Shown here: positions 16,975 to 48,490 of the stretch, one piece after another
Numbering within the stretch: the stretch's first letter is position 1
Layout of the letters: every line of letters starts with the position of its first letter
Origin: a virus
IMG/VR virus record: IMGVR_UViG_3300031965_000033
Coordinates: 1 to 57,988 of that record
Direction: 5' to 3' (one strand)
DNA length: 57,988 nt
Notes under the pieces: model-generated
What the model was told of the DNA's origin: nothing
What the model saw: the letters and a program-made list of their open reading frames with translations, nothing else
Databases searched by the model: none
Translations under genes and position numbers: made by a program

Positions 16975-17204
16975 CAGTCAGAAGGTGTCAGAAAATGGCT
17001 TCTGACAGTGTTTATGGCGTATTTCCGGGAGAAACTGACCCAAAATCGGCGTTTGTCAGACTGTCTACCGATTTTGAAAAAGGAGTCGTAAAAAAAAGAT
17101 GTCTGACAGTCTGACAGGTGGTCATTTTGGTCGAGTTTATGGCGTATTTCCGGGAAGAAAACTGTCATCCGCAAAGTCTGACAAAGTTCTGACTGTCAGA
17201 AGGG
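16971..17204. repeat. Iteron cluster with AT-rich core (putative replication origin or operator array)
   Basis: At least 12 GTCAGA/TCTGAC-type hexamers. Includes ctgacNgtcagaagg at both edges (16971, 17190), tandem gtctgaca x2 (17101-17116), and the 21-bp direct repeat gtttatggcgtatttccggga (17010-17030, 17135-17155). AT-rich stretch at 17071-17100. Confidence 0.6.
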
Positions 17205-17215
17205 AGTGTGGTAAA

Positions 17216-17701
17216 ATGAACGGAACGACGAGCGTGCTGCAAACACACTCGCCGCCCCTAACCGGTCGTCACCTAGAAGGAGGTGCGGCGGCTATGTCGC
17301 ATGGTAACAAACCCGTTGATTTTCCGGTTTTAACCAAACAAGAAGTACTCAATGCCATCAGCCTTGGTGTGGCTGAGGCGTTTCCTTATTCAGATGAAAT
17401 CTTCAACGCGATTCACGGCGGCTGTCGTGGTGCAATGCTCAAGCTTGACGATGAACGCCGAGTTCGCGGTGTCTCGCCGCCACGATCTCCTCGAACGAAG
17501 CGGAAACCAAACAAACAACTCATTCCGAATGAAATACGGTGGGCGGTCTGGGAGAGAGACAACTTCACGTGCCGCGCATGCGGTGCTCGGCGGCATCTCT
17601 CGGTTGATCACATCCTCGCAGAATCAAAGGGCGGATTATTGACGCTCGAAAACTGCCAAACGCTTTGCCGAACATGCAATAGCAGGAAGGGCAACCGATG
17701 A
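17216..17701 (+). CDS. HNH endonuclease (HNH_5-like)
   Basis: WERDNFTCRACG..LSVDHILAESKGG..NCQTLCRTCNSRKG. Start 17216 (AGGGAG RBS) or 17294; the ORF opens at 17099 inside the iterons. Confidence 0.8.
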   Translation: MNGTTSVLQTHSPPLTGRHLEGGAAAMSHGNKPVDFPVLTKQEVLNAISLGVAEAFPYSDEIFNAIHGGCRGAMLKLDDERRVRGVSPPRSPRTKRKPNKQLIPNEIRWAVWERDNFTCRACGARRHLSVDHILAESKGGLLTLENCQTLCRTCNSRKGNR

Positions 17702-31048: not shown

Positions 31049-33676
31049 GTGGCGTTCGTCTCGGACAGCTTCACCGATACCGATACAACCGAACTGTCGC
31101 TCCACACCGGCGAAACCGGGGCGACCTGGACAAAGCACGCCTCGTATAGCACGCTCATCACGATCGTCGGCAACCGTGCCGTGGTGCCCGCCACGACCAA
31201 TACGCTCTACTACGCGAGCGGAACGCCCACCAACGCCGATTACGATGTTGAGGCAGCGATTACTCCGAAGGCCGTTGAGGCCAACGTCGGCATCTGCGCC
31301 CGGATCGACACGTCGGCGAACACGCTCTACATCCTGCAATACGTCGCCGCCAGCACCCGCTGGGAGATCGGACGATTCAGCGCCGGGTCGTACCAAGCGC
31401 TCGGCACCTTTACCCAGACACTCACCGTTGATCAGGCGTACGCGGTCAAGTTCGAACTGCGCGGCGACGCACTCAAGGCGTACATCGACAGCGTTGAGCG
31501 GATCAGTGTCACGGATAGCACCATCACGGCAGCGGGGCGCGTCGGCATCCGGGGCTCTCGGGTTGGCGCGGACGCGGCGACTCGTGGTCTGCATGTCGAT
31601 GATTTCAGCGCGAGCGATCCAGCGGTCGCGGGTCAATTCGCCCGTCCCGACGCGGATGTGTCGGCCGGGACGTGGACCACCGCTCCGCTCTGGAGCAGCA
31701 TCGACGAAGCGGCGGCTGACGACGGCGATCTCATCACCTCGTCAACCACCTCGGGCAGTACGTGCGAGGTTGCGCTCTCCGACGTAACCGACCCCGCCGT
31801 CTCCACCGGGCACATCGTCCGCTACCGCTACAGCAAGACGGCGACTGGGGGTAGTAGTCCGAACATCACGGTCGATCTGGTCGAAAACACGACCGTTCGC
31901 GCGAGTAGCGGCGCGGTCGCGATCCCGGACGCGACGACCTGGAACGACGGAACGTTTACCCTGACTGGCGGGGAAGCCGACTCGATCACGGACTACGCGG
32001 ACCTGCGGTTGCGCTTCACGATGACGCGAGCCGGGGGATCTGCTCGCGGCGCTCGGGTAAGTTGGGCAGAGTTTGAGGTCCCAGCGGCTGGGACTCCGGC
32101 GTCCCTAACGGTGGCAGCGGCAACGGCGCCCGCCGCTGGGGGCACAGTCAATCTCCTGGTTGCCGCGATCCTATCGGTCACGGCGGCAACCAGTGCAGCG
32201 GCGGCAGATGGTGCGCTCACCGTTCCGAATGCACTGACCGTCACCGCAGCTGAGGCAACCGCCGCTGGCGATGCGAACATCACCGCCGCGTCGATCCTGA
32301 CCGTGACCCCGGCTGAATCCCCGGCGGCAGGCGGGTCGGTCAACCTGTCGGCGGCGTCCCTGTTGACGATTACACCTGCCGAGTCCCCCGCTGCCGCTGA
32401 TGGCGCACTCACCGGGCAAGGCGCTCTGGGCGTCGTCAACGCCACCGCACCGGCCCAGGCCGAATCTGTCGATCTCGTTGGTTCGGCGGTCGCAAGCCTC
32501 ATGGTTGATCCCGCGACATCCGCCGCCGCTGGTGGACCCGTGAACTTTACGGCGGCGGCGCGGATGGTCATCTCCGAGGGATTCGAGCTCGGTGAGGACC
32601 TGCTCGGCACGGGCACGCTGGGCACAGGTCTCCCGTCGGCTAGTGCTGACGGTGGAGCGGTCACCTTTGCCATTACGTCGGCGCTAATCGTCACCCCTGC
32701 TGAAGCACCGGCATCGGGTGGCACGGTCAACCTAACTGCAGCCTCGTCATTCGCGATCACACCGGCTGAGGCTTCGGCTGTTGGCGATGGCGCGTTGACC
32801 GGGCAAGGCGTGCTCGGGGTTTCGATCGCGACCGCTCCCGCTGCTGGTGGGGCGGTTGATCTGCTCGGTGATGTGAGCGCGGCGGGCACGTTGACCGTGG
32901 CGGCTGCTGAGGCTCCGGCAGCTGTTGATGCCAACCTCACCGCCGCGTCCGTGTTCGCGGCTAATACGGCGACGGCCACCGCGCAGGCGGAAACATCCGC
33001 ACTGATCGGACAGGCCCGGCTCGCGGTGGTTGCTGCCGAAGCGGCGGCACAGGCCGAGACCGTCAGTCTCACTGGGCAGGGCATCCTGTCGGTTACCGGC
33101 GCTGAGTCGCCCGCGCAGGGTGAAGGCGTCACGTTCGATGCCGCCGCCCGGATGGTGCTGGCCGAAGCTCTGGCAAGTGCCGAGGCGGGCGCGGTTTCGC
33201 TCAATGCCGGTGGCGCGGCGTCATTGACGGTCAGTCCGGCGACAGCAGACGCGGCGGCTGACAGCGCGTTCACGGCGGCGGCGACATTCGGCGTGACCAC
33301 GGCGACCGCTGTTGCCGAAGGCGCGGCGGTTTCGTTTGACGCCGCGAGCAGGATGGTCCTAGTATCGGCGCTCGCGGCCGCGGCGGGCGGGGGCGTTACG
33401 CTCGCTGCACCAGGCGCGCTCGCCGTTGATCCAGGCGCGGCTACGGCGGCGGCCGACGGCGCTATGGTTGGGGCTGCCATCCTGTCATTGGATGCAGCGA
33501 TCGCCGTCGCCGCAGCAGCTGGAGATGTGAATTCCGCTGGGTCAATCGCGTTCCTCGGGCGGTTGACGATCAGCGCCACCGGCGGACTGGTTACTGTGAC
33601 GAATACAGACGGCGACCTTACCATAACGCAATCAGGTGGAGTCCTGGCAATCACAGGAGGTCAATACGATGACTGA
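31049..33676 (+). CDS. Large repeat protein: LamG/ConA-like N-terminal domain + ~25 degenerate Ala/Thr/Gly-rich repeats
   Basis: GTG after GGAGG. The N-terminal ~190 aa is jelly-roll-like. From about aa 350, units such as LTVTPAESPAAGGSVNLSAAS repeat. Confidence 0.7.
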   Translation: MAFVSDSFTDTDTTELSLHTGETGATWTKHASYSTLITIVGNRAVVPATTNTLYYASGTPTNADYDVEAAITPKAVEANVGICARIDTSANTLYILQYVAASTRWEIGRFSAGSYQALGTFTQTLTVDQAYAVKFELRGDALKAYIDSVERISVTDSTITAAGRVGIRGSRVGADAATRGLHVDDFSASDPAVAGQFARPDADVSAGTWTTAPLWSSIDEAAADDGDLITSSTTSGSTCEVALSDVTDPAVSTGHIVRYRYSKTATGGSSPNITVDLVENTTVRASSGAVAIPDATTWNDGTFTLTGGEADSITDYADLRLRFTMTRAGGSARGARVSWAEFEVPAAGTPASLTVAAATAPAAGGTVNLLVAAILSVTAATSAAAADGALTVPNALTVTAAEATAAGDANITAASILTVTPAESPAAGGSVNLSAASLLTITPAESPAAADGALTGQGALGVVNATAPAQAESVDLVGSAVASLMVDPATSAAAGGPVNFTAAARMVISEGFELGEDLLGTGTLGTGLPSASADGGAVTFAITSALIVTPAEAPASGGTVNLTAASSFAITPAEASAVGDGALTGQGVLGVSIATAPAAGGAVDLLGDVSAAGTLTVAAAEAPAAVDANLTAASVFAANTATATAQAETSALIGQARLAVVAAEAAAQAETVSLTGQGILSVTGAESPAQGEGVTFDAAARMVLAEALASAEAGAVSLNAGGAASLTVSPATADAAADSAFTAAATFGVTTATAVAEGAAVSFDAASRMVLVSALAAAAGGGVTLAAPGALAVDPGAATAAADGAMVGAAILSLDAAIAVAAAAGDVNSAGSIAFLGRLTISATGGLVTVTNTDGDLTITQSGGVLAITGGQYDD
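32090..33560 (+). repeat. Degenerate ~60-66-bp tandem coding repeats inside 31049..33676
   Basis: Recurrent ...ACn CCn GCn GAn GCn CCn GCn... units, with higher-order duplication (about 32270-32520 vs 32690-32890). Confidence 0.6.
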
Positions 33677-34053: not shown

Positions 34054-35772
34054 ATGTCCCGGACCTGGACCTCATTCCAATTCGCCAAACCCGATAAGCG
34101 ATCATCGGCCATGGTTGGCCTCTGGCTTGCGCCCGAACCAGCCGCAACGCTCGCGCTCGATGGTCAACTCCCACCCGACCAACTGCATATCACGCTCGCG
34201 ATCCTGGAGGCCGATGCCGCCAGCCTGAGCGACGTGCAGCAGGCGCGTTTCCTGACCACGGTTGACGATCTCGCGGCTTGGACCGCGCCGCTTTCCGGCG
34301 ATGTCGCGGGCATGGGCCGGTTCTACGCGTCGGACTCGAGCGACGGTCAAGACGTGCTCTTTGCGATTCCGAATGTCGAGGGCTTGGGAAAACTCCGGCA
34401 CCGGCTGTGCGAGAACCTTGGGTACGCGCAACTCCCGCACAAAGACGACTTCGAGTTCTTTCCGCACATTAGCCTCGCCTACGTCGCGTCCGGCGCCGAA
34501 TCGCCCGTGGCTGCCGTCGCAACGACTCCGCTCAGTTTCACCGCCCTGACCGTCGTCATGGGCGATCGGATGACCACCGTCCCCCTTCGTGGTTGGTCCG
34601 ACGGCGCGATGTCCTACGCCGATGCCGGGATCATCGGCGAGGGGCACCGCCTGTTCACCGAACTGCAAACCTACATCGAACCGCCTGAATGGCTTCCGCT
34701 CATGCCGGCCCCCGGCAACTACGTGCACCGCGACTACGGCACGGTCGATTTACCGGCGGATCGGATCGAACGGCTTGTGGCCAGCATCAATAACGGGGTC
34801 TATCAAAAGTCGATTCCGATCGATGTCTCGCACGACAAGGACGATCTCGACCTAAACGGCGGGCTCGGCTGGTTCGGCACTGCCCGCATCAATGCCGACG
34901 GCTCCGCCGATGTGCGGGTCGAATGGACGCCGCGTGGCACGGAAGCGCTGCTGGCGGATCGGTTCCGGTACGTCAGTCCGGAGTTCGCGCTCTCATGGAA
35001 AGACGAGGACGGTGTTGATCACGACGATGTCGTGCTTGGCCTGGCCCTCTGCACGAATCCCTTTTTCAAGGACCTCGCGATCGATCGTGCGCTCGTTGCG
35101 TCCGAGCGCGGCGCGTCCGTTTCCACGCTTTCTCTTGTTCATCAGTTTGGCGAGCCGGTGCGGTTCGTCGCGAAGGATCAGGCGCACCGCGCGCCGGAGG
35201 AAACACTCATGGCAGACGAGAAGCCAGCAGTTGCCCCCACGGCTCAGCAGTTCACGGAGTTGAGCCAATCGTTCAGCGATCTCAAGACGAGTTTCGGCGA
35301 GTTGCAGCAGAAGTTCACCGAGTCGGAGACGGCGCGCGAGACTGAGAAGACCGCACGCGAAGCCGCCGAAGCCAAAGCGACCGAAGCCGATGCCCGCATC
35401 CAGGCGATGGAAGACGCGAAGCGGCGCAAGGAATTCACGGACGAGGTTCTCGGTAAGTCGGACGCGAGCGGGATTCGCTGGTTCGGCAACGCCGATAACC
35501 ACATCAAAATCCTTGAATCCTTTACCGACGATGCGCTCCGGCAGACCTACATCGACGAACAACGTGAGAACGCGAAGCGGATGACGGCGGCCGCGATCAA
35601 GCCGGAGATTGGCAGTGATGCGCCGGGAGAGACCGACATTCAGTCTCAGTACAACGCCGAGGTCACGCGGGTAATGACGGAATCGAAGGTGTCCAAGGCG
35701 CAGGCAACCCGCACGGTGTTGCGTGAGAACCGGGAGCTCGCGGCCGCGGTTGCGGCTGGAAAGGTCAAGTAA
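34054..35772 (+). CDS. Fusion protein: 2H phosphoesterase (LigT-like) domain + Mu gpI-type prohead protease + coiled-coil scaffold
   Basis: Two HxT/S motifs (LHITLAIL, PHISLAYV) about 100 aa apart. Then IPIDVSHDKDD..GWFGTARINADGSADVRVEWTPRG..FRYVSPEF (Mu I-like). Then a long Glu/Lys/Ala-rich helical region. The start may be 34111. Confidence 0.8.
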   Translation: MSRTWTSFQFAKPDKRSSAMVGLWLAPEPAATLALDGQLPPDQLHITLAILEADAASLSDVQQARFLTTVDDLAAWTAPLSGDVAGMGRFYASDSSDGQDVLFAIPNVEGLGKLRHRLCENLGYAQLPHKDDFEFFPHISLAYVASGAESPVAAVATTPLSFTALTVVMGDRMTTVPLRGWSDGAMSYADAGIIGEGHRLFTELQTYIEPPEWLPLMPAPGNYVHRDYGTVDLPADRIERLVASINNGVYQKSIPIDVSHDKDDLDLNGGLGWFGTARINADGSADVRVEWTPRGTEALLADRFRYVSPEFALSWKDEDGVDHDDVVLGLALCTNPFFKDLAIDRALVASERGASVSTLSLVHQFGEPVRFVAKDQAHRAPEETLMADEKPAVAPTAQQFTELSQSFSDLKTSFGELQQKFTESETARETEKTAREAAEAKATEADARIQAMEDAKRRKEFTDEVLGKSDASGIRWFGNADNHIKILESFTDDALRQTYIDEQRENAKRMTAAAIKPEIGSDAPGETDIQSQYNAEVTRVMTESKVSKAQATRTVLRENRELAAAVAAGKVK

Positions 35773-36183: not shown

Positions 36184-37134
36184 ATGGCTCAGCCCACACT
36201 CAGTTCAGTCCATATCAATCAGCCTTTGACACAGATTAGCGTCGCGTATCTGCAATCGGTAGATCACTACATCGCGACGAAGGTCTTTCCGATCGTGCGC
36301 GTCGGTAAACGCACGGACAGCTACTTCATTTACACCAAAGACGATTGGCGTCGCGATGAGGCGAAGATTCGACCACCGGGAACCGAGTCCGCTGGCTCCG
36401 GCTACGGGCTCAGCACAGCGACCTATACCGCCGACGTGTTCGCGTTCCACAAGGATGTCGACGGGCAAACACTTGCCAACTCAGACGATCCGCTGCGACC
36501 GTACGAGGACGCGACAGAGTACGTCACCCAGCGCTTGCTGCTCCGGCAGGAAAAGCAATGGACGGCCGACGCATTCGTCACCGGCGTGTGGGGCACCTCG
36601 ACTACACCCTCCGCGCTGTGGAGCACCTATGCGACGTCGGTCCCGATCACCGATGTCGAAACCGCGAAACGCACCATCTTGATCAATACCGGCTTTATGC
36701 CGAATACGATGGTGGTCGGGTACGACACGTACATTCAACTGATCAACCATCCCGATATCGTTGACCGGCTGTCGAACCAGTCAGACCGAATTGTCAACGA
36801 AGGGAAGCTCGCCTCGATCTTCGGACTCCCGAACTTCTATATCGCCAAGGCCTCGGAAAATACCGCCGTTGAGGGCGAAACCGCGGTCAACGCCTTCGTC
36901 CAGGGCAAGCACGCCTGGGTCGGCTATGTTGCGCCGAATCCATCGCTGTTGACTCCGAGCGCGGGCTACACCTTCGTCTGGGATTCCGTCTCGGGCGGCA
37001 TCGGTGAGGACATCGCGATCATGCGGCTCGATATGCCGTGGATCGACAGTGTGCGGATCGAGGGGCAGCTTGCATTCGATAATAAGTTGGTCGCAACAGA
37101 TTTAGGTTACATGTTCGTTGATGTGGTCGCATGA
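36184..37134 (+). CDS. Major capsid protein (lambda E / Mu T-like, HK97 fold)
   Basis: 316 aa after the scaffold and decoration genes. GAAGGAG RBS. The N-terminal QPLTQISVAY..ATKVFP.V.V region resembles Phage_cap_E-type capsids. Confidence 0.85.
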   Translation: MAQPTLSSVHINQPLTQISVAYLQSVDHYIATKVFPIVRVGKRTDSYFIYTKDDWRRDEAKIRPPGTESAGSGYGLSTATYTADVFAFHKDVDGQTLANSDDPLRPYEDATEYVTQRLLLRQEKQWTADAFVTGVWGTSTTPSALWSTYATSVPITDVETAKRTILINTGFMPNTMVVGYDTYIQLINHPDIVDRLSNQSDRIVNEGKLASIFGLPNFYIAKASENTAVEGETAVNAFVQGKHAWVGYVAPNPSLLTPSAGYTFVWDSVSGGIGEDIAIMRLDMPWIDSVRIEGQLAFDNKLVATDLGYMFVDVVA

Positions 37135-37161: not shown

Positions 37162-37392
37162 ATGAGATTTCAAGTACTTCGCCCGGTTGATCTCGGTAGT
37201 GGCATCGTGCAACCGGGGGAGATCGTGACGGATGACGGATGGGCGGATCGACGGGCGCAGCAGATGGTCGCACAGCGATTGATCACGCCGGCCGATCCGT
37301 TCCAGCCGGGTGATCCAGTGCCGACGGTCGGTCGACAAACACAGACACAACGACGGGGCTCGCGCGGCGTGTCCCAGTCGCAGCGGAGGTAA
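37162..37392 (+). CDS. Hypothetical protein
   Basis: 76-aa ORF with GGAAGGG RBS. Confidence 0.5.
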   Translation: MRFQVLRPVDLGSGIVQPGEIVTDDGWADRRAQQMVAQRLITPADPFQPGDPVPTVGRQTQTQRRGSRGVSQSQRR

Positions 37393-37398
37393 CACCCA

Positions 37399-37929
37399 AT
37401 GGGTAACGCACTGAATATCGGAGCGTTCAGCGTCGATGCGATCACGAACGCAGGGATCGCAGACGAGGCGTTCGGCGAAGAGCACTACGACGCGTATGCA
37501 ATGGCGGCCCTAGCGCTCGGCAAGCGGGTCACTCGCGACACGGCCACGCTTCCGGCTGGAGTCGCGACGCCGTATTTCACGGTCACGGGCGGGCCGATTC
37601 TGCTTGTGCAGATTTATGGCGTGGTCACCACGATCGTGCAAACGCAGGCATGTAATGCCAAATTGATCGCAAACCCGACCACTGGATCTGATGTCGATCT
37701 GTGCGCGGTGCTTAACATCACAGCGGCTGCGGCGGGCAGTTTCTTCACCATCACTGGAACGGTTGCTGACGCGCTGTTGAATCTCGTTGCTGTCAAGGCA
37801 ATGGTGACTCCGCTCATCATCCCGGTCGGCTCGATCGACTTATCGATGTCGGCAACGAATACAGGTGCGACTCGCTGGGTGGCGCATTACCTTCCACTCG
37901 AAAGCACGTCAGTCCTGGCGGCTGCCTAA
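37399..37929 (+). CDS. Hypothetical structural protein
   Basis: 176-aa Ala/Thr/Val-rich ORF. Confidence 0.55.
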   Translation: MGNALNIGAFSVDAITNAGIADEAFGEEHYDAYAMAALALGKRVTRDTATLPAGVATPYFTVTGGPILLVQIYGVVTTIVQTQACNAKLIANPTTGSDVDLCAVLNITAAAAGSFFTITGTVADALLNLVAVKAMVTPLIIPVGSIDLSMSATNTGATRWVAHYLPLESTSVLAAA

Positions 37930-37956
37930 GTCGAGGTTTGAATCGGGGGTCATTGG

Positions 37957-38304
37957 ATGAATCGCACGCACGGAAAAGAAGTCATCGGTGCGCTCGCGCT
38001 GAAACCATCGACCGCGACCGGATCAGCCAACGCATCAACCTGTCACGCCGCAAGCGGCAAGATCACGACCGAATCGGCCACGACCGCGGCCGGAGCGACG
38101 TTTACCGAGACGATCACGAACGATCAAATCGCGGCAGCGGATATGGTCTTTGCCTCGGTGACAACGACGGGGACAGGGTCTCCCGTGGTTACGAAGGTCA
38201 CGCCGGGGGCTGGCTCGGTGGTGATCATTATTCAAAACATCCATGCGTCGGCCGGATTCAATGCGGCGCTCGTGATTTCGTTTGCCGTGCTGAAGGCGAG
38301 TTGA
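37957..38304 (+). CDS. Hypothetical structural protein
   Basis: 115-aa Thr/Ala-rich ORF; the last gene before the terminator. Confidence 0.55.
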   Translation: MNRTHGKEVIGALALKPSTATGSANASTCHAASGKITTESATTAAGATFTETITNDQIAAADMVFASVTTTGTGSPVVTKVTPGAGSVVIIIQNIHASAGFNAALVISFAVLKAS

Positions 38305-38343
38305 CCGGTCCGGTAAGCGGTCACATGGATTGACGCAAACGCG

Positions 38344-38377
38344 GGGGCGGACGAGTGCAAGTTCGTCCGCCCCTTTT
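38344..38377 (+). terminator. Intrinsic terminator after the head operon
   Basis: ggggcggacga-(loop)-tcgtccgcccc followed by TTTT. Confidence 0.8.
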
Positions 38378-38397
38378 CAGTCAGGAGCTATCGATCA

Positions 38398-38604
38398 ATG
38401 CCAGACACCGCACAGATCACTCTTCACGTTCGCATCCGTCGCGTGTGGCCGCTCCATGTGGCCGCGCTGGTTGCACGCGTGTGGCCGTCTGTCGGTCGGT
38501 GGCTGTTCTGCCGGGTACTTGGTATGCCTCGCCTTGACTATCGCACGGGCAAACGGTGGCAGCCACTCGGATCGATTGATGACTTGTTTGAGGTGACGTG
38601 CTGA
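38398..38604 (+). CDS. Possible small protein
   Basis: AGGAG upstream; the stop abuts the next ATG. However, the product is Arg/Val/Trp-rich and contains three GTGTGGCCG-type DNA repeats. Confidence 0.35.
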   Translation: MPDTAQITLHVRIRRVWPLHVAALVARVWPSVGRWLFCRVLGMPRLDYRTGKRWQPLGSIDDLFEVTC

Positions 38605-38605
38605 T

Positions 38606-39031
38606 ATGGCGTACGACCCGACAGTAGCTGGCAGCGGTCGCAATCTCGTGAGGCACTACCTCGGTGGGGCGCTCACGAACGATGTGCTGACCGACGACGA
38701 GATCGACTTGTATTTGACGGGCGGGGCGCTCGCCAAATCAAGCACGATCCTGGCGGCTGTCGCGTGCGGCGAATATCTGCTCAGGCAGGCCAGCTACCAC
38801 GTCGATATCCGGGAGGGCGGCGCATCCGCCACGCTTTCGCAACTCGCGCCGCAGCTCCGGTTGATGGTTGCCGAGTTGCGAGCCGTCGCGGCGGGGGCGG
38901 CTGGGCCTACGGCGCTGCTGGCATCGATCAATGTCGACTCCGCGGGCAACACCCGCCTGCCGTCGTTCACGCGAGCGATGGGCGATATCCGGGACGATGC
39001 GCCCAAAGCCGTGGATTGGGCGGACGCATGA
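38606..39031 (+). CDS. Head-tail connector/adaptor (putative)
   Basis: Called by position: the first gene of the connector block. Confidence 0.5.
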   Translation: MAYDPTVAGSGRNLVRHYLGGALTNDVLTDDEIDLYLTGGALAKSSTILAAVACGEYLLRQASYHVDIREGGASATLSQLAPQLRLMVAELRAVAAGAAGPTALLASINVDSAGNTRLPSFTRAMGDIRDDAPKAVDWADA

Positions 39032-40326: not shown

Positions 40327-40668
40327 ATGCCAGAGCCAGTCGTTATCTACACATTCACACCGCAATTCGAGGGCGCGTATTTGAAGGATGTGCCGAAGCG
40401 CGATTTGACCGCAGTCGACGTCGCCAACATGACCGGGGCGCAGATGCGCGATGCGTTCAGTCCGCATCCTGTCCACGGCACGCCGCTCTATACGCCGGTC
40501 GATCCATCGAGCGCGCCGGACTTTTCGCACGTCCATGAGGCGCCGATCGAGATCATCTCGGAAGAAGAGCAGGCGCAGCGCCGGGCAGCGGGCGCGGCCG
40601 AAGCCAAACGCAAAGCCGACGCCGCGAAAGCGACAACGAAAGACACGGGCAAGGACGGTGAATCATGA
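40327..40668 (+). CDS. Hypothetical protein
   Basis: 113 aa with a Lys/Ala-rich C-terminus. Confidence 0.55.
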   Translation: MPEPVVIYTFTPQFEGAYLKDVPKRDLTAVDVANMTGAQMRDAFSPHPVHGTPLYTPVDPSSAPDFSHVHEAPIEIISEEEQAQRRAAGAAEAKRKADAAKATTKDTGKDGES

Positions 40669-41909
40669 CGGTTCCAGTCGGACCTCCAAACTATCAGCAG
40701 CTCGTGCGGACGCAGGTCGGCGTTGAAACCATCCGCGGCACCTCCGTCACCAAAACCAACAAGTGGTACGGTCGCCTGGCCTTGACCCGCCGTCAGCCTC
40801 TGGCCGATTCCGAGGACTTCGACGGCTCGTTCTTCGGTGACGTCGAGCCGGTCCGTGGCGCGATGATGGTCGACGGCACGTACTACCAGCCGATGGCGTA
40901 CGAGGATGTCCATCTGTTGCGCTACGCCGTCAAAGGCGGGGTGACGCCGGTGACCGATGGCGAGACGACGCCGGGTTATCTCAGCACCTTCCGCCACACC
41001 GGCAGCCGCGATGATCTCGATACCGCTTCGATCGAGTACGGCACGCCGGAGATGATCTGGGCGTGCAACGGGATCATGTTCCCGGAGTTCACATTTTCGA
41101 GCGATATCGACGATCCGCAGGCAGTGTGGAAATTCAACGCTCGCGCGATCGGACTCTCAAAGGACCTGAAGGCCGGACTCGATGACGTCGCCGCAACGTC
41201 CGGCACAACCACCACGTTCGTCAAAACCGCGTGGGGCTTGACGGGCTCCGCACACGTTGGCGCATGGATTCATGTCAAGAGCGGTACCGCCGGCAATATC
41301 GGGCTGTGGCGCGAAGTCACAGCCAATGACACCACGTCGTTAACCTTTGCCGCGCTGCCGTCTGCCGTGGCGTCTGGCGATGTGATCGACGTCTATCCGG
41401 TTTTCACAGCCGCTGTCGCCGATCGCGCACGTGAGAAGATCATCGGGCCGGGGACGAAACTTTACCTAGATCCGCTAGGCGGCACGATCGGAACGACTGA
41501 GATCACCGGGCGCTTTATTTCCTGGAGTGTCACGAGCCAGATCAACGCTGCCTACAAGCGCTTCCAGGACAATGTCGCCACAATGTCGAACCGGGTCGAT
41601 CGCGGCACGATCCGGATGACGGGTCAGGTGGTGCTGGAATTCGACCGCAAGGCCGAATGGGATCTGTACAAGGCGATGACGCCGAGCTTGATTCGCATCG
41701 AGCAAACCGGCACGACGATCGACGCCGGCGCCGGTACGACCAAGAGCGCGACGATCGATCTTTACCGTGCGGTATTCGATGATCCCACAGAAACAATACG
41801 TGGCAACAATGTTATCGCCACGTGGCCATTTAGAGCGTACAAATCCGTTGCTGAGTCTGTTTACGGAGAGTACGCGCTGAAGACAACCGCAGCGGCATTG
41901 CTGGCCTAA
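40665..41909 (+). CDS. Major tail protein (putative)
   Basis: ATGA overlap. At 414 aa, the largest gene between the connectors and the chaperones. Confidence 0.5.
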   Translation: MTVPVGPPNYQQLVRTQVGVETIRGTSVTKTNKWYGRLALTRRQPLADSEDFDGSFFGDVEPVRGAMMVDGTYYQPMAYEDVHLLRYAVKGGVTPVTDGETTPGYLSTFRHTGSRDDLDTASIEYGTPEMIWACNGIMFPEFTFSSDIDDPQAVWKFNARAIGLSKDLKAGLDDVAATSGTTTTFVKTAWGLTGSAHVGAWIHVKSGTAGNIGLWREVTANDTTSLTFAALPSAVASGDVIDVYPVFTAAVADRAREKIIGPGTKLYLDPLGGTIGTTEITGRFISWSVTSQINAAYKRFQDNVATMSNRVDRGTIRMTGQVVLEFDRKAEWDLYKAMTPSLIRIEQTGTTIDAGAGTTKSATIDLYRAVFDDPTETIRGNNVIATWPFRAYKSVAESVYGEYALKTTAAALLA

Positions 41910-41912
41910 TCG

Positions 41913-42215
41913 ATGAGCTCATCCCCGCTCACCTGCCGGTGCGGCCGCATCCTGGCGACGAGGCACCACGGTGGGCGGGTGCATGTCTGTGAGCGGATCG
42001 GGGTCGTACTGGAGCCGACGGGGCAGTTCGGGCCGTTCGCGCGGTTGACGTGTGTGTGCGGGGCAGCACGGAACGTGACGATGGCGCGGGGATCGGCTAC
42101 GCCGGGGGATCGGGACTTGCGTTTACGCGATCTATCCAGTCCGCGATCCGTTCAGGATGATACAACCGGACATCTGTCAGTCGATCAAAGATCCCCGGAT
42201 GTGCCGCACGCATAA
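41913..42215 (+). CDS. Possible zinc-ribbon protein
   Basis: The N-terminal half has CRCG...HVCE...CVCG. The 3' 118 nt overlap the convergent gene 42097..42429. Confidence 0.35.
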   Translation: MSSSPLTCRCGRILATRHHGGRVHVCERIGVVLEPTGQFGPFARLTCVCGAARNVTMARGSATPGDRDLRLRDLSSPRSVQDDTTGHLSVDQRSPDVPHA

Positions 42216-42429
42216 CAGTCAACTCACGGCAATTGGTCAATCGTCTAGCGTCTTCCCACTTTTCAATCCAGCGACCTCCGCGAGATCGCACCACAAGCCG
42301 GACGCGATCCCCGGCATTGCCGACGTTGAATCCGCAGATGTACGCCTTCGCTCCAACAGATGCGACGTTGGTTGCCTCTGCATAGTTGCAGGCGATGGCG
42401 CGGACCTCGTCCGTATTCGGTTCGCTCAT
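42097..42429 (-). CDS. Hypothetical protein (island operon gene 4)
   Basis: ATGA-coupled to the upstream gene; 110 aa. Confidence 0.6.
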   Translation of the reverse strand: MSEPNTDEVRAIACNYAEATNVASVGAKAYICGFNVGNAGDRVRLVVRSRGGRWIEKWEDARRLTNCRELTVMRAAHPGIFDRLTDVRLYHPERIADWIDRVNASPDPPA

Positions 42430-42608
42430 TCCTCATCCTCGTTGAGTTCTTGGATTCGACTCAAAGCAACCGCGTTGCGAAGACGACGTATGAGACTTGC
42501 CTCAACGTCGGTGATTGATTCGATTGCGAGTTGCTGGAGGTGGTCCCATAGCCATGCGGCATCCTGGTTCTCAAACGTTACGACACGGACGGTTTGGTTC
42601 TCTCTCAT
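42426..42608 (-). CDS. Hypothetical protein (island operon gene 3)
   Basis: ATGA-coupled on both sides; 60 aa with an acidic tail. Confidence 0.55.
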   Translation of the reverse strand: MRENQTVRVVTFENQDAAWLWDHLQQLAIESITDVEASLIRRLRNAVALSRIQELNEDEE

Positions 42609-43141
42609 TTATCATCCTCCGGCGTCAACTCCCGTGGCTCGACACCGAGCGGCGTCTTCTTCCGGCCGCGTCCTGGAATAAGCAGCGCCGAGATAATCCT
42701 AACGTCACGATCATCAAACACGAGTAAGCGGGCACCGATCTGCGAACCGAGCCCGTGCTTCGCGGCTAGCTTGCGAACGTGAGCGGCTGAGATGCCCAGC
42801 CGCTCCGCTACCTCTTGGGTAGTGATTGGGACAGTCGGGCCCGATGCTAGTTGAGTTGGCCGCGAAAGATTGACGATGGTATCCCCGCGCTCTCGAAGGC
42901 GATCCATCCATTCAGCTTCGGAACCAATGAGATCATAAGCGTGCTTGATTTCCTCGAGGCATTCGAAGGAGAAGGTAGACGGCCCGTCTTCAGTCCAAGC
43001 GTTCTGAAGATGTTCGTTGTAATGACTCTTTCTCTTCAATAGGGCGCGATGATTCGAAAACCGAGACTCAATGTTGATACTACTGCCGACATAGGCAATT
43101 CCTCGGCCTACACTTCGAACGGCATATACCCCTATCGTCAT
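42605..43141 (-). CDS. GIY-YIG nuclease with C-terminal helix-turn-helix
   Basis: GVYAVRSVGRGIAYVGSSINIESRFSNH..HYNEHLQNAW (GIY...YIG...R...N). C-terminal ITTQEVAERLGISAAHVRKLA. Confidence 0.85.
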   Translation of the reverse strand: MTIGVYAVRSVGRGIAYVGSSINIESRFSNHRALLKRKSHYNEHLQNAWTEDGPSTFSFECLEEIKHAYDLIGSEAEWMDRLRERGDTIVNLSRPTQLASGPTVPITTQEVAERLGISAAHVRKLAAKHGLGSQIGARLLVFDDRDVRIISALLIPGRGRKKTPLGVEPRELTPEDDK

Positions 43142-43317
43142 TTGATCCCCATCTCCTTCCGTACTCGTTCAATCTCTGTTGGATCGAACCGCCGATATCC
43201 GCTCAGTAATTTAATCATCGGAACCTTGCCGGCGTCGGCCCACGTCCGCAATGTCGTTGGGTGAACTCCAAGCCGTCGGGCCGCTTGAGCGATCGTCAAG
43301 AGTTTCGATTCTGCCAT
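43138..43317 (-). CDS. Excisionase/MerR-type HTH DNA-binding protein
   Basis: ATG 43317 lies 6 nt after AGGAGGG. LLTIAQAARRLGVHPTTLRTWADAGKVP. The ORF opens at 43596, but that part is upstream of the promoter. Confidence 0.8.
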   Translation of the reverse strand: MAESKLLTIAQAARRLGVHPTTLRTWADAGKVPMIKLLSGYRRFDPTEIERVRKEMGIK

Positions 43318-43336
43318 CTCGTACCCTCCTGCGCTC

Positions 43337-43365
43337 ATCATACCAAAATAGAACGACTTTAGCAA
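43337..43365 (-). promoter_or_regulatory. Leftward island promoter TTGCTA-17-TATGAT
   Basis: On the minus strand, ttgcta (43365-43360), 17-nt spacer, tatgat (43342-43337). Confidence 0.6.
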
Positions 43366-43371
43366 GAACGC

Positions 43372-43400
43372 TTGACTTTTACAGTAGACTTTGATAGACT
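43372..43400 (+). promoter_or_regulatory. Rightward island promoter TTGACT-17-TAGACT with GACTTT repeats
   Basis: ttgact at 43372-43377 and tagact at 43395-43400. GACTTT occurs at 43355, 43374, 43387 and 43397. Confidence 0.6.
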
Positions 43401-43437
43401 TTAGACATTGAATCGGACGACAGAAACGGAGACGGAC

Positions 43438-43629
43438 ATGACACAGGCTGAGATGAGAATCGAAAACATGAAGCACCTGACCGATGCGGACCTGGTCAAG
43501 CGAGCCCTGACCGACGATCACACGAGCGCATACCGCAGCAACCACTACATCTCTTCCCCGACCAACCTGTACCGAGCGGAGTTGCAGCGGCGACAAGCGG
43601 TCGCCGCAACGGAATTGGTGGCCGCGTGA
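43438..43629 (+). CDS. Hypothetical protein (island, rightward gene 1)
   Basis: ATG 43438 after GGAGACGG (the ORF opens at TTG 43408). Confidence 0.5.
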   Translation: MTQAEMRIENMKHLTDADLVKRALTDDHTSAYRSNHYISSPTNLYRAELQRRQAVAATELVAA

Positions 43630-43883
43630 TGGTGACCTTGACGAGCAAGCTCTACAAAGGACTCGAGTGGTCGACGGATCGCGCGGAAGGCGTGACCTCG
43701 ATCGAGCACGCGGCGCGAATGTTGGCGCGGTGGACGGCGATGTATGCGCGGCCGGAAGCGATCCAGGCCGGAGCCGATGCCAAGTTCTGGTTCCGGCGGG
43801 ATGATTACAATTTATTAGTAACCGTACAGAATGTGTCCATTGACGATCTACGAGCGGCGTACCGGCAACTCCGCGCGTCGTGA
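43626..43883 (+). CDS. Hypothetical protein (island, rightward gene 2)
   Basis: GTGA overlap; 85 aa. Confidence 0.55.
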   Translation: MMVTLTSKLYKGLEWSTDRAEGVTSIEHAARMLARWTAMYARPEAIQAGADAKFWFRRDDYNLLVTVQNVSIDDLRAAYRQLRAS

Positions 43884-44006
43884 GCGCTTGTCATGACGAT
43901 TTGATCCCGCGCTTCTCCGCTAATTCGCGTATCAAAATCTCCAGCATCGCCGTCTTATCGACGCCTTGCCTTTCCGCCATTTGAGCTCATCAAAACGCTG
44001 GAAGAC

Positions 44007-44531
44007 TTGGAGTACGACATTCCCGCCGAGGCCACGCACGAGGAAATCCTTGAAGCCATCAAGAAAGTCGCAGCTCAGCGGAACGGCAATACCTTCCGGC
44101 GCAACGAAGACGGATTGTTCCTGAGCGGCTACCAGATCAAAGCCATGCTGAAAGAAGCAACCGCGATCATGTTCCCCGGCGGCAACGGCGACGGAACGCA
44201 CAAGTGGGGAATCACGAGAAAAGCGCCGCGCTCGTATCTTGCGGAACGTGTGTTTGTGGACGAATTAGCGGTGCCACTCGGACGCACGGAACCGGACGGA
44301 ACGCACCTACAGATCGGACAAGTCAAGAGTCCGAAAGGGCAACGGTCCACGCTGACCTATGTGGATTATTGCGAGCAACCGACAATATCGTTCACGATTT
44401 CATCTGCGCAAGACTGCATCGATCGCACGAAGTGGACGGAGATTTTTGTGTTGAGCCAGCGGCTGGGACTTGGGGCGTTGCGGTCGATGGGCTACGGTAC
44501 ATTCAAAGTAACGGCATTTGATAAGGCATGA
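44007..44531 (+). CDS. RAMP-like protein (Cas6/Cas7-type glycine-rich loop); function unknown
   Basis: C-terminal GLGALRSMGYGTF fits the GhGxxxxxGhG loop of RAMP proteins. N-terminal LSGYQIKAMLKEA resembles the [ST]xhKGxhR motif. TTG start is uncertain. Confidence 0.5.
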   Translation: MEYDIPAEATHEEILEAIKKVAAQRNGNTFRRNEDGLFLSGYQIKAMLKEATAIMFPGGNGDGTHKWGITRKAPRSYLAERVFVDELAVPLGRTEPDGTHLQIGQVKSPKGQRSTLTYVDYCEQPTISFTISSAQDCIDRTKWTEIFVLSQRLGLGALRSMGYGTFKVTAFDKA

Positions 44532-45005
44532 CGCGGTTGAGACCGCTACACGAATCGACCGCCCGAACCCGCGTTGATCAGTTCGTCTCGCGTCACCGCG
44601 ACTACCCTTCACCTTTCGGCACTTGTCATCTCAGTTCGCACCGACGGTTCCAGTTCCTTCTCGACGAATCGACGTTTCGTAACGGAGCCATTCTGTGCGC
44701 CCCGACGTACCGTGACGGTCCCAGGCTTTGCGAATCGACTATCCGCTACCGTTCCCCTCGTCTCGTCTCGACTACTCTATTCGTGACTTATCGACACAAG
44801 CCGACGTGACTGTACCGCCCAGGTCTCGACTGGCCAAATCCGAGTATACCGACTACCCGCTACTGCACCCCTCGTCTTATTTCGACGAGACTGGTCGACT
44901 CACCCTGAGCCATGACCTGACGCACCGACTAGCCGCCACGCGACTCTTCTTTCCCCCGCGACGGGGCATAACGATGTGACATCGTGACCGCTTGCGGCCA
45001 GGGAG
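44532..45005 (+). other. C-rich, strand-asymmetric CGAC-repeat tract (probably untranslated RNA)
   Basis: 17 CGAC on the plus strand against 1 GTCG. Hand count over 44581-44940: A65 C132 G77 T86. Degenerate 100-137-bp repeats (CGACTAYCC at 44599, 44736, 44849). All three forward frames are partly open, and no ORF looks protein-like. Confidence 0.55.
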
Positions 45006-45059
45006 CGCCTAGTGTGGTAGACTGACCCTCAGCAAACCAAAAACATGGTGGACGTACGG

Positions 45060-45104
45060 GCCGCCGGTGGACTCGCTGTAATCGCGAGTTGCCGGCGGCT
45101 TTTT
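45060..45104 (+). terminator. Strong intrinsic terminator closing the island
   Basis: gccgccgg...actcgc-tgtaatc-gcgagt...ccggcggc (8 + 6 bp) followed by TTTTT. Confidence 0.85.
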
Positions 45105-45126
45105 CGTATTACCCAAAGGATCAACG

Positions 45127-45630
45127 ATGGTAGCGAAGACGAAGACACTGGAGACAACCGAAGCGCCGGTCATCGATGACGAGCAGGCGGTTGTCGATAA
45201 GGCGGTATCGCGGTTCACCTTTGCTGATGACTTCCCCGCTGTTGTGCCAGATCCTGATGGGTTCTACCACGATGCGAGCTGGATCAAGATCGAGTGCGAT
45301 TGGGACGGACTGAAGCCAAAACCGGGGTGTGCCCCACTCTGGGCCGAGATCGATGCCGGGCTCACGTTTGACGACGCGGAAGCGATTCCGAACATCTTCG
45401 AAACGCCGTACGGTCAACTCTACCGCTATGTCTGCCCACGCGTGCGGGCGTGGAACGCGAAGGCTCGCGATCTCAATACTGGTCACCTTATGGATGTTCC
45501 GCCACCCGCTGAGATCGGGCCCGACGCCTTCCGCGCAATTCATCCGCGCATCTTGCTCTGGATCGCCTACACGCTCAAGACGATTCATTTAGGCGGTGGT
45601 CCGAACCGCCCAAAAGAGACGAGCTCATAA
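45127..45630 (+). CDS. Tail assembly chaperone (G-like)
   Basis: Immediately upstream of the tape measure. Contains the slippery heptamer near its 3' end. Confidence 0.7.
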   Translation: MVAKTKTLETTEAPVIDDEQAVVDKAVSRFTFADDFPAVVPDPDGFYHDASWIKIECDWDGLKPKPGCAPLWAEIDAGLTFDDAEAIPNIFETPYGQLYRYVCPRVRAWNAKARDLNTGHLMDVPPPAEIGPDAFRAIHPRILLWIAYTLKTIHLGGGPNRPKETSS

Positions 45631-45917
45631 AGTCATGGACGCGTTGGAATGAGCGTCGTCGATTGGATTTACCCAACGCGGATTGGGACGACGATGACCC
45701 GGAGAATCCACCGCCCGTCAAACCAGGCGGGCTCGATAAGAATTTGTTCTATCGATGGGGAGAGCGCATCTGGCCCGATGAGCTTGGACGGCAACGAGCG
45801 ATGCGCTTCAGTCAGGCGATGCGGGATCAACAAGTCTACCGAGAGACGATCGAAAGCGTCGCTCAACAAGCACAGGCGTTCGGTGTCGTGAGTACGGACA
45901 TTTCGCCGGTTGCTTAG
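45127..45917 (+). CDS. Tail assembly chaperone G-T fusion (via -1 frameshift at 45609-45615)
   Basis: The -1 frame reads PKRDELIKSWTRWNERRRLDLPNADW... without stops to TAG at 45915-45917. The canonical arrangement upstream of a tape measure gene. Confidence 0.6.
45609..45615 (+). other. -1 programmed frameshift heptamer C_CCA_AAA
   Basis: X_XXY_YYZ in the zero frame (cgC CCA AAA). The -1 frame is open from here to 45917. Confidence 0.65.
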
Positions 45918-46054: not shown

Positions 46055-48490
46055 ATGAGCGATAAAGTCGAGATCAAGATAACAGGAACTAACCAGGCCG
46101 GTCCTGCATTTCGACAGGTTACGTCAGATGCCCAAACAATGGGGCGATCAATCGACGAAACCGGGCGGCGCTCCGCTCAGTCGCTACAAAACATCAACCA
46201 ACGAGCGGCCGCGTTGGGTGCTGCGATCGGTGGCGCAACACTCCTCATGGGCGAGTTTACCCGTGCCGCCGCTGAGGACGAAGCAAGCCAAGCACGGGTT
46301 GAACAAGCCATCCAGAACACCGGCGACGCACTGGATGACTATTCCGCCAAGCTCGACATCGCCATCAAAAAAGGCCAAGAAAAAGCATTCTCCGACGACG
46401 ATACCCGCGACGCACTGACGAAACTAATCGGCGTTACCAACGATACTGGCCTGGCGATGGACAATCTCGGGCTGGTTATGGACTTTGCGCGAGCGCGGGG
46501 TATTAGCCTCGCGACATCTGCCGACATCATCGGGAAGGTGATGGGCGGCAACCTCGGAATTCTTTCCAGGTACGGAATCGTGCTTGGCGAGAACGCCACT
46601 AAAGAGGAAGCGCTCGCACTCATTCAGCAACGATCGGCGGGGCAGGCGGCAACCTATGCGGAAACTTCACTCGGTCAACTCGACATCTATAAGGACAAAC
46701 TCGGTGAACTGACCGAAGGGTGGGGCGCTCACGCCGGGGCGATGCAGTCCGTGCTGCTCATGTTGCCGGGACTACGTGCTGGATACATTGCGCTAGCGGG
46801 CGCGATCGGTGGACTCGGCGGGCTCGGGGCGCTCGCCGGGATTGCCGTTCCAGCCGCCTTAGTTGCGGGCGGCGCATCACTCGCGTACGGCTACAACCAG
46901 GATACGATTGGCGAGACGGCGACTAATACCTTTTGGAATAACTTTTTCCTAAAAGGCTCCCAGGTCATGAACGCCCTGCTTCCGGGCGATCCATATGACG
47001 TTCAGAAGTATCGCGAGCAGCTCCTTGAGAATGAACGCGGGGCACTCATCAACACCGGACTCCTAGCTCCAGGCGAAGACCAGTCGGTTGTTTGGGATCG
47101 CATTGCCGCGCTCACTGGAACGATCACCGGCGAGATGAGCACGCGAGAGCTCATTGATCATGTCGTACGGCTTTCAACTGGTCAGGGCCTGACGATTCCG
47201 CAATGGGTTTCGCAGACAGCGGGGGCGCGGGCTGACTGGATTCAAGACCCGATCACTGGCGTCAATATGCCGAGATCGGAATACAGTCGCTACAACAGCC
47301 AACGTCTTATTGGGTCCGGGATGTATCCGACAACTGGGGTCGGGCTCAGCGCGGGCTACGTTGGCCCATTGCCTCGCCCAGACCCGTACGGCGGGCAAGG
47401 TATCTATAACCCGTTCCAGTACGATTTCGCGAAGTACAACGCACAGGTCGGGTCACGGTTTGGCACGGAGCCGGCCTATAGCGCGTATGGCACCGGCGGC
47501 ACGGGTGCCATCGCCAATACGCTAAGCGGCGCGGGTGCGGCTCCGATTGTGCTCTCACAGGCCAATCAAGACATTGCTAATGCCGCCAACGCGGCCGCCT
47601 ACACCGCCGCGCTCGAAGAGCAGTACGGCGCGTACGCTCGACTGATCGAGGGGATTGACGGCGCAAGGGGAGCGGCTTCTGCGTACAAAGCGGTTCAGGA
47701 TGGGCTACTTGGAGACCAGGAAGTTTACAACCATCAATTAGGCGAATTCGGCGGTGTTCAGTCCGATCTCACGGCTGGCTATGAGATCCTTTTAGAACGG
47801 CAAGCGGCGGGGCAAAAACTCACTAAAGAAGAACAAAGCTTGCTCGACAACTACCCTGCGCTGTATGCGCGAATCAGCGGTGCTGTAGACGACGCGACGG
47901 TTTCCAATGCGCTGATCGCCGCATCCTATATCGAAAACATGAAACAGAGTGATGCTTGGAAGTCATCACTCGATGACACCAATGGATCACTTGGCAGCCT
48001 GAACGAGACCCTTCAACTCTTCATTCTCAGTCTCGAAGGCGTGCCTGAAGAAGTCCGTACGAGAATCTACCTCGACAACATCTCGCTTGCGCTTCAGGAC
48101 ATCGAGACGTTCAAGTCTCTACTCGACAGCGTGCCGCCTTCCGTCGCGACCACACTCTATCTGACGTATCAGGACTACATCCCAGGCGGCGTTGGCTCTC
48201 CGTTCCTACACGGTGGCATTCCCAGGTACGCCAATGGCGGCATTCCGATTTACGCGGGCGAAGCGGGTCCTGAGTTGATGAGCTTTGCGAACGGCGGTTC
48301 CGCGATGGCGATGACGCCGGGTATTTACACCGTGCCCCAGAACACCCATATCACCCCCGCCCCCGCGTCCAGGGGGCGGATGAGCGGCGGTGGCGGGAAC
48401 ATCATCGTGCAGGGCGATCTCCACCTGCATATGAGCGATCCCAACGTCTATGCGGCTGTCCGTGAATCCGCGATCGGCGGTTCGCGATGA
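46055..48490 (+). CDS. Tape measure protein
   Basis: 811 aa, Ala/Gly-rich helical with hydrophobic segments, downstream of the G/GT chaperones. Confidence 0.9.
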   Translation: MSDKVEIKITGTNQAGPAFRQVTSDAQTMGRSIDETGRRSAQSLQNINQRAAALGAAIGGATLLMGEFTRAAAEDEASQARVEQAIQNTGDALDDYSAKLDIAIKKGQEKAFSDDDTRDALTKLIGVTNDTGLAMDNLGLVMDFARARGISLATSADIIGKVMGGNLGILSRYGIVLGENATKEEALALIQQRSAGQAATYAETSLGQLDIYKDKLGELTEGWGAHAGAMQSVLLMLPGLRAGYIALAGAIGGLGGLGALAGIAVPAALVAGGASLAYGYNQDTIGETATNTFWNNFFLKGSQVMNALLPGDPYDVQKYREQLLENERGALINTGLLAPGEDQSVVWDRIAALTGTITGEMSTRELIDHVVRLSTGQGLTIPQWVSQTAGARADWIQDPITGVNMPRSEYSRYNSQRLIGSGMYPTTGVGLSAGYVGPLPRPDPYGGQGIYNPFQYDFAKYNAQVGSRFGTEPAYSAYGTGGTGAIANTLSGAGAAPIVLSQANQDIANAANAAAYTAALEEQYGAYARLIEGIDGARGAASAYKAVQDGLLGDQEVYNHQLGEFGGVQSDLTAGYEILLERQAAGQKLTKEEQSLLDNYPALYARISGAVDDATVSNALIAASYIENMKQSDAWKSSLDDTNGSLGSLNETLQLFILSLEGVPEEVRTRIYLDNISLALQDIETFKSLLDSVPPSVATTLYLTYQDYIPGGVGSPFLHGGIPRYANGGIPIYAGEAGPELMSFANGGSAMAMTPGIYTVPQNTHITPAPASRGRMSGGGGNIIVQGDLHLHMSDPNVYAAVRESAIGGSR

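Follow-up and report, generated by a model that had tools for sequence, protein, structure and literature searches.

An insertion between the tail-tube and tail-chaperone genes

What is a stretch of about 3.2 kb doing between two tail genes that lie side by side in related phages? The question is raised by the virus record IMGVR_UViG_3300031965_000033, of which positions 1 to 57,988 (57,988 nucleotides, here called the window) were analysed as a whole. The stretch concerned, here called the island, comprises 41910-45126, between the stop codon of the tail-tube gene and the ribosome-binding site (RBS) of the tail-chaperone gene. The explanation that we favour, with some reservation, is a horizontally acquired mosaic selfish island that was probably spread by its own homing endonuclease and that carries a recently decayed module of a Cas7-like gene and a periodic C tract.

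The window is a phage genome of ~58 kb with a G + C content (GC) of 0.59, in which nearly all genes point rightward. It encodes a large serine integrase (4703-6232, minus strand), DNA methylases, a PrimPol-type primase, HNH endonucleases and a Mu-type portal; the integrase, together with the portal, head, tube and tape-measure genes, therefore marks the phage by gene content as temperate and siphovirus-like. The structural genes that serve as landmarks are as follows.

36184-37134: major head protein
40665-41909: tail-tube protein, 414 residues, stop codon TAA at 41907-41909, Pfam PF18906 in some homologs
45127-45630: tail chaperone, 167 residues, ATG at 45127
46055-48490: tape-measure protein

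Tube-protein homologs were traced to their contigs (48 proteins), and the tube/chaperone junction was compared in six relatives, namely L006, L007 and L008, with tube proteins 63-69% identical to that of the window, and the distant Chloroflexota loci L031-L033. In every one of them the chaperone open reading frame (ORF) overlaps the tube gene or begins at most 51 nucleotides (nt) past its end, and the tape-measure gene is next after the chaperone. Protein similarity and synteny pick up again directly on either side of 41910-45126. Thus, with the segment absent in 6/6 relatives and synteny resuming on both flanks, sequence comparison identifies the segment as an insertion. A first-pass annotation of this DNA had proposed that ~3 kb splits the tail module, and the comparison with related phages bears this out: the two genes are adjacent in all six, whose junctions lack the island, and 3.2 kb apart here.

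The contig is metagenomic and the island holds a homing endonuclease gene, features that would suit a chimeric assembly, an intron or an intein. However, 10.3 kb spanning the island recur with 100% identity in a separate ENA assembly, so that the island is not one assembler's product, and three contigs carry it. Moreover, the island is intergenic with genes on both strands, and searches of it with Rfam (at gathering cut-offs and at E <= 1), for tRNAs and with TRF returned no match, so that what was found does not describe a group I/II intron carrying a homing endonuclease. Either explanation is extremely improbable.

An imperfect 18-nt direct repeat (16/18 identical) brackets the island at 41877-41894 and 45148-45165, its copies sitting just within the tube C-terminal and chaperone N-terminal coding regions. 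It could be insertion microhomology, or chance, as a search of 3.3 kb yielded 37 repeat families. The left end of the island is distinct in composition.

41910-42096, no strand: left junction, GC 0.70, not present in relatives

An uncalled ORF of 100 residues (41913-42215, plus strand) begins here 4 nt past the tube stop codon, in a 70% GC stretch, and overlaps the opposite-strand gene for a 110-residue protein. Its product has two CxCG motifs 38 residues apart and is zinc-ribbon-like; it is not in the gene-call collection and gave no Pfam, PHROG or phage-database match.

Putative divergent promoters, probable operators and a terminator

The island carries its own predicted transcription signals.

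43337-43402, no strand: back-to-back sigma-70-like promoters and four GACTTT direct repeats
45058-45104, plus strand: intrinsic terminator, a long GC-rich stem (45058-45099) followed by T5, recognised by folding energy

The minus-strand promoter (TTGCTA-17-TATGAT, 43365-43337) and the plus-strand promoter (TTGACT-17-TAGACT, 43372-43400) each match at 9/12 positions and have a TG extension. Promoter matches of equal quality number 5 per 10 kb region vs 4.2 expected, i.e. no excess over chance. In the related cassette of locus L002 (2163-4800), both hexamer pairs are held at the same positions (TTGATA-17-TAAGAT and TTGCAA-17-TAGTAT), the spacers having diverged and 11 nt being inserted between the -35 elements. 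The divergent promoters proposed earlier are therefore present as sequence elements whose hexamer positions are kept in L002, and are putative as sites of initiation.

All four of the GACTTT repeats that had been said to overlap these promoters were found (43355, 43374, 43387 and 43397, plus strand, within 48 nt; the whole window has 25 copies on both strands), the last two, as AGACTTT, being spaced by 10 nt. At this site L002 has ATCTCT three times instead, at exactly 10-nt spacing. As the repeats change in L002 alongside a 54%-identical helix-turn-helix (HTH) protein while the hexamers stay, the repeats are probably operators that co-vary with their cognate HTH.

At the other end, the terminator stem with its T5 folds at -39.5 kcal/mol (z = -4.6), and 0/200 shuffles fold as well, in agreement with the earlier description of it as very strong. 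L002 and L011 also have a comparable terminator after the tract. Own promoters and own terminator together would make the island a self-contained unit within the late operon. As the terminator lies directly upstream of the chaperone RBS, the island might alternatively be kept as a dosage insulator whose terminator makes the chaperone and tape-measure genes less transcribed than the tube gene. Phages require far more tube protein than chaperone or tape-measure protein, and such an insulator would fit this excess. Against it, 6/6 relatives manage without a terminator island and 3.2 kb far exceeds what a terminator needs, and we consider dosage insulation distinctly unlikely.

The composition of the island is uneven. 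Its description as AT-richer DNA is accurate for ~42.4-43.4 kb, as the drop in GC is confined to 42426-43437 (0.44-0.55), but not for the rightward genes (0.59-0.60, at the genome mean) or the left junction.

A leftward operon with a GIY-YIG endonuclease

Four genes are read leftward from the putative minus-strand promoter.

43138-43317, minus strand: HTH protein of MerR/excisionase (Xis) type, 59 residues (Pfam HTH_17 8e-11, MerR 3e-10)
42605-43141, minus strand: GIY-YIG homing endonuclease, 178 residues, with a putative C-terminal HTH region, assigned by profile matches
42426-42608, minus strand: acidic protein, 60 residues, ORF with ATGA overlaps on both sides, a singleton cluster
42097-42429, minus strand: accessory protein, 110 residues, last leftward gene, core motif VRSRGGRWIEKWE..RRL.NFR

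Their ATGA coupling, already noted in the first-pass annotation, is evident in 4-nt overlaps at 43138-43141, 42605-42608 and 42426-42429. The HTH protein, whose L002 homolog (2729-2905) is the one cited above, is presumed to regulate the divergent promoters. The 178-residue protein matches the Pfam GIY-YIG domain (1.1e-7, above cut-off), the PHROG homing endonuclease (1.6e-13) and the PADLOC HEase model (2.8e-10), and its C-terminal HTH reaches HTH_17 at 1.1e-5 (26.0 bits vs a cut-off of 27). It is matched by 140 phage records, which are annotated as homing, intron or seg-like endonucleases. Residues Y6, Y17, R27, H31, H40, E75 and N90 are conserved in an alignment to a manually entered I-TevI sequence, and the endonuclease is apparently intact and active. 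In its catalytic residues and putative C-terminal HTH, its intergenic location between conserved essential genes and its sporadic presence in relatives, it resembles the free-standing GIY-YIG endonucleases (T4 seg, I-TevI-like). Unlike these, it lies within a larger regulated operon and is translationally coupled to an upstream HTH gene.

The acidic 60-residue protein had no family match in Pfam, PHROG or PADLOC. The 110-residue protein belongs to a family of 11 members including the window copy, with a conserved SRGGRWIEKWE core; its homologs occur singly at unrelated, partly moron-like sites of other phage contigs. An AlphaFold2 (AF2) model (predicted local distance difference test, pLDDT, 82.5) predicts a small five-stranded beta-barrel with a C-terminal helix, for which the best PDB matches were SH3/Sm-like and not significant (E >= 0.2).

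Rightward genes and a truncated Cas7-like gene

The elements between the plus-strand promoter and the terminator are the following.

43438-43629, plus strand: protein of 63 residues, RBS GGAG and start region conserved in L002
43626-43883, plus strand: protein of 84/85 residues, start GTG 43626 or ATG 43629
43884-43985, no strand: rearrangement junction between the end of the 85-residue gene and codon ~59 of the Cas7-like gene, no L002 homology
43986-44531, plus strand: 5'-truncated Cas7-like RAMP gene, homology begins at 43986
44533-44546, plus strand: short GC hairpin just past the stop codon, then CTACACGAATC, conserved in L002 and L003
44552-44990, plus strand: 5-nt periodic C tract with units GAC+(NNNNC)n, located by a periodicity scan

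For the 63-residue protein no family match was obtained in Pfam, PHROG or PADLOC. The 84/85-residue protein is 82% identical to an 84-residue protein of L002 and belongs to a small family of 80-110 residues, other matches being short and repeat-like; a phage-database search gave no match, and a metagenome scan with the 85-residue form returned only a fragment identical to L002. Where three rightward genes and a repeat tract had been annotated, two small genes stand; the third is instead a candidate truncated Cas7-like pseudogene, and the tract is a 5-nt periodic element.

The first possible start codon of the Cas7-like remnant (TTG 44007, giving 174 residues) has a poor RBS spacing. At least 129 homologs of this 174-residue ORF form the Cas7-like family, nearly all of 230-260 residues, and full-length members are carried by Microcystis phage Mae-JY09 (PP395641.1, locus at 37174-38976) and by L002. 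The ~58 N-terminal residues of the family (GIFD..FT.YRV...VMGGVPQ.PEIIE.WLR) are missing from the window copy, and a search for them across the whole window gave chance-level matches only. As a separate observation, the chaperone C-terminus (45585-45644, ..HLGGGPNRPKE..) gave weak tblastn matches with three queries (E 2.6-3.2) to the GG.P..P motif of the family, probably by chance. Residues 1-58 correspond to beta1, beta2 and alpha1 of the full-length model, leaving the RAMP core of the window copy incomplete. Naturally short forms of the family were considered and discarded, as the two shorter entries looked up (P0041 and P0048) are cut by contig ends. All 19 family-invariant residues of the retained part are intact and the evolutionary rate is only slightly raised; with the frame still open, this indicates that the truncation is recent or that the fragment is still of some use. 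The remnant is probably non-functional.

The arrangement of the parts differs from that in L002. The L002 cassette occupies another place in the structural module, immediately ahead of scaffold/capsid-like genes (210, 135 and 357 residues, like those of L008), in the order 84aa<-64aa<-P|P->HTH->partner->Cas7-like->tract, where the partner is a conserved, ~200-residue helical protein whose gene lies directly upstream of the Cas7-like gene in most other loci. In the window, by comparison, the block HTH-promoters-63aa-85aa has the opposite orientation with respect to the Cas7-like gene, and neither the partner gene nor 58 of the Cas7-like codons are present.

Origin of the island

The mosaic character of the island is supported by its order of parts, which is unlike that of L002, by the other site of the L002 cassette, and by the single occurrence of 110-residue homologs at unrelated sites. 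Under the explanation favoured here, a regulatory switch would consist of the two sigma-70-type promoters and the overlapping repeats, which are probably the operators of the HTH protein that the island itself encodes. Leftward transcription would yield this HTH, the apparently active GIY-YIG endonuclease and a pair of small accessory proteins; rightward transcription would yield two small proteins, continue through the truncated Cas7-like remnant and its C tract, and stop at the terminator. When the phage co-infects or recombines with a relative that lacks the island, the endonuclease would cut near the tube/chaperone junction and repair would copy the island in.

Several observations weigh against this reconstruction. 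The strong terminator ends 22 nt upstream of the essential chaperone gene, so that late tail transcription would need read-through or antitermination, and the terminator-like fold sought at the left end of the island was not found. The IMG/VR scan with the endonuclease returned distant GIY-YIG domains only, and no close relative that shows homing at this site. L002 is the sole related cassette available for comparison. Finally, the 181 open codons of the remnant and its full set of invariant residues would also fit a protein that still functions or was very recently truncated.

The first-pass annotation had classed the island as a moron or a defence/anti-defence cassette. The moron architecture stands: the island is a unit of putative promoters, genes and a predicted terminator, with promoter hexamers kept in position in L002, between genes that are adjacent in the island-free relatives of a temperate phage. 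In these respects, and in its partly deviant composition and sigma-70-like promoters, it resembles the morons of lambdoid and other temperate phages; the 110-residue homologs at moron-like positions, e.g. a lone opposite-strand gene in L035, add to the likeness. Unlike morons, the island is bidirectional, has seven ORFs with its own regulator and a homing endonuclease, and is partly a decayed gene. The defence content, in contrast, found no support. No island product matches a defence or anti-defence family in PADLOC, Pfam or PHROG, the PADLOC matches in the island being HEase and a generic HTH model (mad1) only, and the longest gene of the leftward operon encodes the GIY-YIG homing endonuclease, a selfish element rather than cargo of use to the host. 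A classical cassette in which the small proteins (110, 60, 63 and 85 residues) would be made in the prophage state from the sigma-70-like promoters and benefit the lysogen or counter immunity, the endonuclease being incidental, is further disfavoured by uninformative folds and by a rightward unit that is partly a truncated gene, and we think it has perhaps one chance for every few that it has not. As a selfish mosaic, the island would be a well-documented example of the endonuclease cassettes and morons that enter conserved tail operons, a kind already known, useful and unsurprising.

The Cas7-like family and its periodic C tract

The unexpected part lies in the right half of the island. An AF2 model of the full-length family (pLDDT 83.7), which conserves a glycine-rich motif (GLGALRS.G.G), was compared with the PDB by Foldseek. 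The best match was Cmr4 (6s6b_I, E 1.8e-5), the range extending to 1e-3 with template-modelling (TM) scores of 0.4-0.5, and other matches included many Csm3 chains and the type VII Cas7. The top 50 PDB matches listed are all type III or type VII CRISPR effector subunits or Cas7-11. In BFVD, the matches were viral proteins, among them one that bears the annotation RAMP superfamily protein (E 3.5e-9). Profile searches gave weak matches to Csm4, Cas5, Cmr6 and Csf2 at the glycine-rich loop, and one family member is named Csm4 by JGI. By its predicted structure, then, the full-length family has the RRM-like RAMP core of the Cas7/RAMP superfamily.

The setting is not that of a CRISPR-Cas system of any type, type IV-B included, as no CRISPR array was found in the window and no other Cas family matched among the scanned proteins of the window and L002 or in the partner family. 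The partner-protein profile found neither a PDB match nor a relation to the Cas7-like family, and single partner sequences had no match in Pfam, PADLOC or PDB.

What accompanies the family instead is the tract. The pentamers have C at position 5 in 94% of cases in the window and in 95% of 795 pentamers pooled from 14 loci, with positions 1-2 unconstrained. Successive CGAC distances cluster at 8, 13, 18, ... 53 and are 3 mod 5 in 138/257 cases (binomial p = 7e-33); in the window the CGAC-to-CGAC spacings are 43, 43, 20, 8, 33, 33, 33, 23, 10, 25, 23, 33, 13, 30, 15 and 18. The odds of C-C pairs peak at lags 5 and 10 in 14/14 tracts, the strongest periodicity being that of the window (lag-5 odds 1.46), where the 13 best 300-nt segments of a scan for 5-nt periodicity all begin at 44401-44751. 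CCGACT is enriched (60 observed vs 8.7 expected), and CGAATCGAC has three exact copies in the window, all within 44551-44739. Next to the homologs, too, stretches of 200-1300 nt are rich in C (about 0.35-0.52) and comparatively poor in G (0.15-0.26).

The periodic signal adjoins the Cas7-like gene across 37 loci, and control loci are essentially free of it. Wherever a related locus reaches far enough, a tract adjoins the gene and is on its coding strand. Every complete tract locus has a full-length Cas7-like gene, and most also have the partner gene. The tract mostly lies 3' of the gene, after a short GC hairpin (in the window the folding energy of the hairpin alone is not significant). In L017 (5639-5980), L019 (5406-5980) and L021 (4913-5525) it lies directly 5' of the gene, between the partner and Cas7-like genes, and ends at the RBS; L021 has tracts on either side. 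The association of the Cas7-like gene with the (NNNNC)n tract is thus strongly supported as a pattern, and no published description of the two together in phages was found in the literature searched.

Several simpler accounts of the tract were tried and set aside. It is not a tandem repeat, as TRF finds nothing in what is a 5-nt periodic array, nor is it protein-coding, as the period is 5 nt. A structured RNA is disfavoured, since secondary structure is not in excess of composition-matched shuffles (z = 0.22) and an Rfam search with the window tract gave no match. A fixed place ahead of late genes does not hold, as helicases follow the tract in L028 and a PAPS reductase follows it in L020, nor does a fixed end in an intrinsic terminator, which is clear only for the window, L002 and L011. 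The reductase of L020 (7997-8863, PF01507, 6.6e-15), directly after the tract, is a single case that may be coincidence. A cysH-like gene of the PAPS-reductase superfamily is the defining feature of type IV-B CRISPR loci.

Between the window and L002, the tract is alignable over 39 nt only yet keeps its pattern in both, and the Cas7-like gene is 78% identical; this suggests that selection acts on the pattern of the tract rather than on its sequence. The same fast divergence under a constant pattern, the strong periodicity of the window tract, its place between predicted promoter and terminator and its C-rich composition without excess structure could indicate that the right half of the island still functions, the tract acting alone as RNA or DNA (for Rho loading, as an insulating region or as a decoy) or together with a Cas7-like protein that a co-resident phage provides in trans. 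Complete loci, however, pair the tract with a full-length gene and mostly with the partner, here broken and missing, respectively, and a recent rearrangement explains the good preservation equally well. We therefore hold a working right half to be improbable and retain the explanation by recent decay. A DNA-level role of the tract, e.g. in priming or as an origin, is possible.

What the intact module does can be proposed tentatively. The truncated gene and tract may be what is left of a so far undescribed phage module, made up of a solitary Cas7-like RAMP protein, its ~200-residue partner and a GAC+(NNNNC)n tract of 200-1300 nt, in which the Cas7-like protein would polymerise on the transcript in 5-nt register, reading the periodic C, as a dedicated ribonucleoprotein (RNP) filament; we regard this proposal as possible but doubtful. 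Cas7 backbones bind RNA with a 6-nt repeat, and the tract, with its period of 5 nt, accordingly falls outside the canonical Cas7 mode. The family, with its full-length predicted Cas7-like fold, resembles the RAMP backbones Csm3, Cmr4 and Csf2, and it lacks a CRISPR array just as type IV-B does. Unlike in Cas7 systems, the partner is an unrelated protein; in place of a CRISPR RNA complex with 6-nt periodicity, a non-coding tract with 5-nt periodicity always adjoins the gene; and, unlike a Cas7 backbone, the window copy is without its N-terminal strands. RNA targets of TRAP consist of (G/U)AG triplets with spacers of 2-3 nt and are read by an oligomeric protein. The tract is similar to these as a signal of ~5-nt periodicity in non-coding RNA, and dissimilar in its single-C motif, its far longer arrays, the fold of its protein and its phage context. 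The closest described situation is type IV-B, where Csf2, a Csm3-like protein, forms a filament on non-CRISPR RNA of unknown origin (PMC8175902).

If the protein does read the tract, at least 129 phage Cas7-like proteins would represent a new kind of sequence-programmed RNP filament, with the Cas7 fold employed outside CRISPR, in the control of phage genes or in counter-defence. The tract would then provide array-less Cas7 assemblies with a natural RNA ligand, the identity of which is an open question for type IV-B (PMC8175902).

Relatives and other features of the phage genome

Among 50,697 deposited phage genomes no close relative of the phage was found; the island (megablast) and the tube, 110-, 85- and 100-residue products (tblastn) likewise had no match in these records, and neither had the tube protein in an IMG/VR scan. 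Relatives of the tube protein that could be placed in a genome all come from Chloroflexota metagenome-assembled genomes, a weak hint at a Chloroflexota host.

With two more HNH endonuclease genes of homing type, at 1991-2740 and 17099-17701, the genome is rich in selfish nucleases, which also favours a selfish origin of the island. An ORF of 875 residues (31049-33676), opposite one of 553 residues on the other strand, occupies the most GC-rich part of the window (0.64-0.69) and gave no match in Pfam or PHROG. Within the head module, a 572-residue protein (34054-35772) combines an N-terminal region that matches RNA-ligase PHROGs (5.6e-22) with a prohead-protease region, an unusual fusion whose L006 homolog has a faint match to LigT/2H-phosphoesterases.

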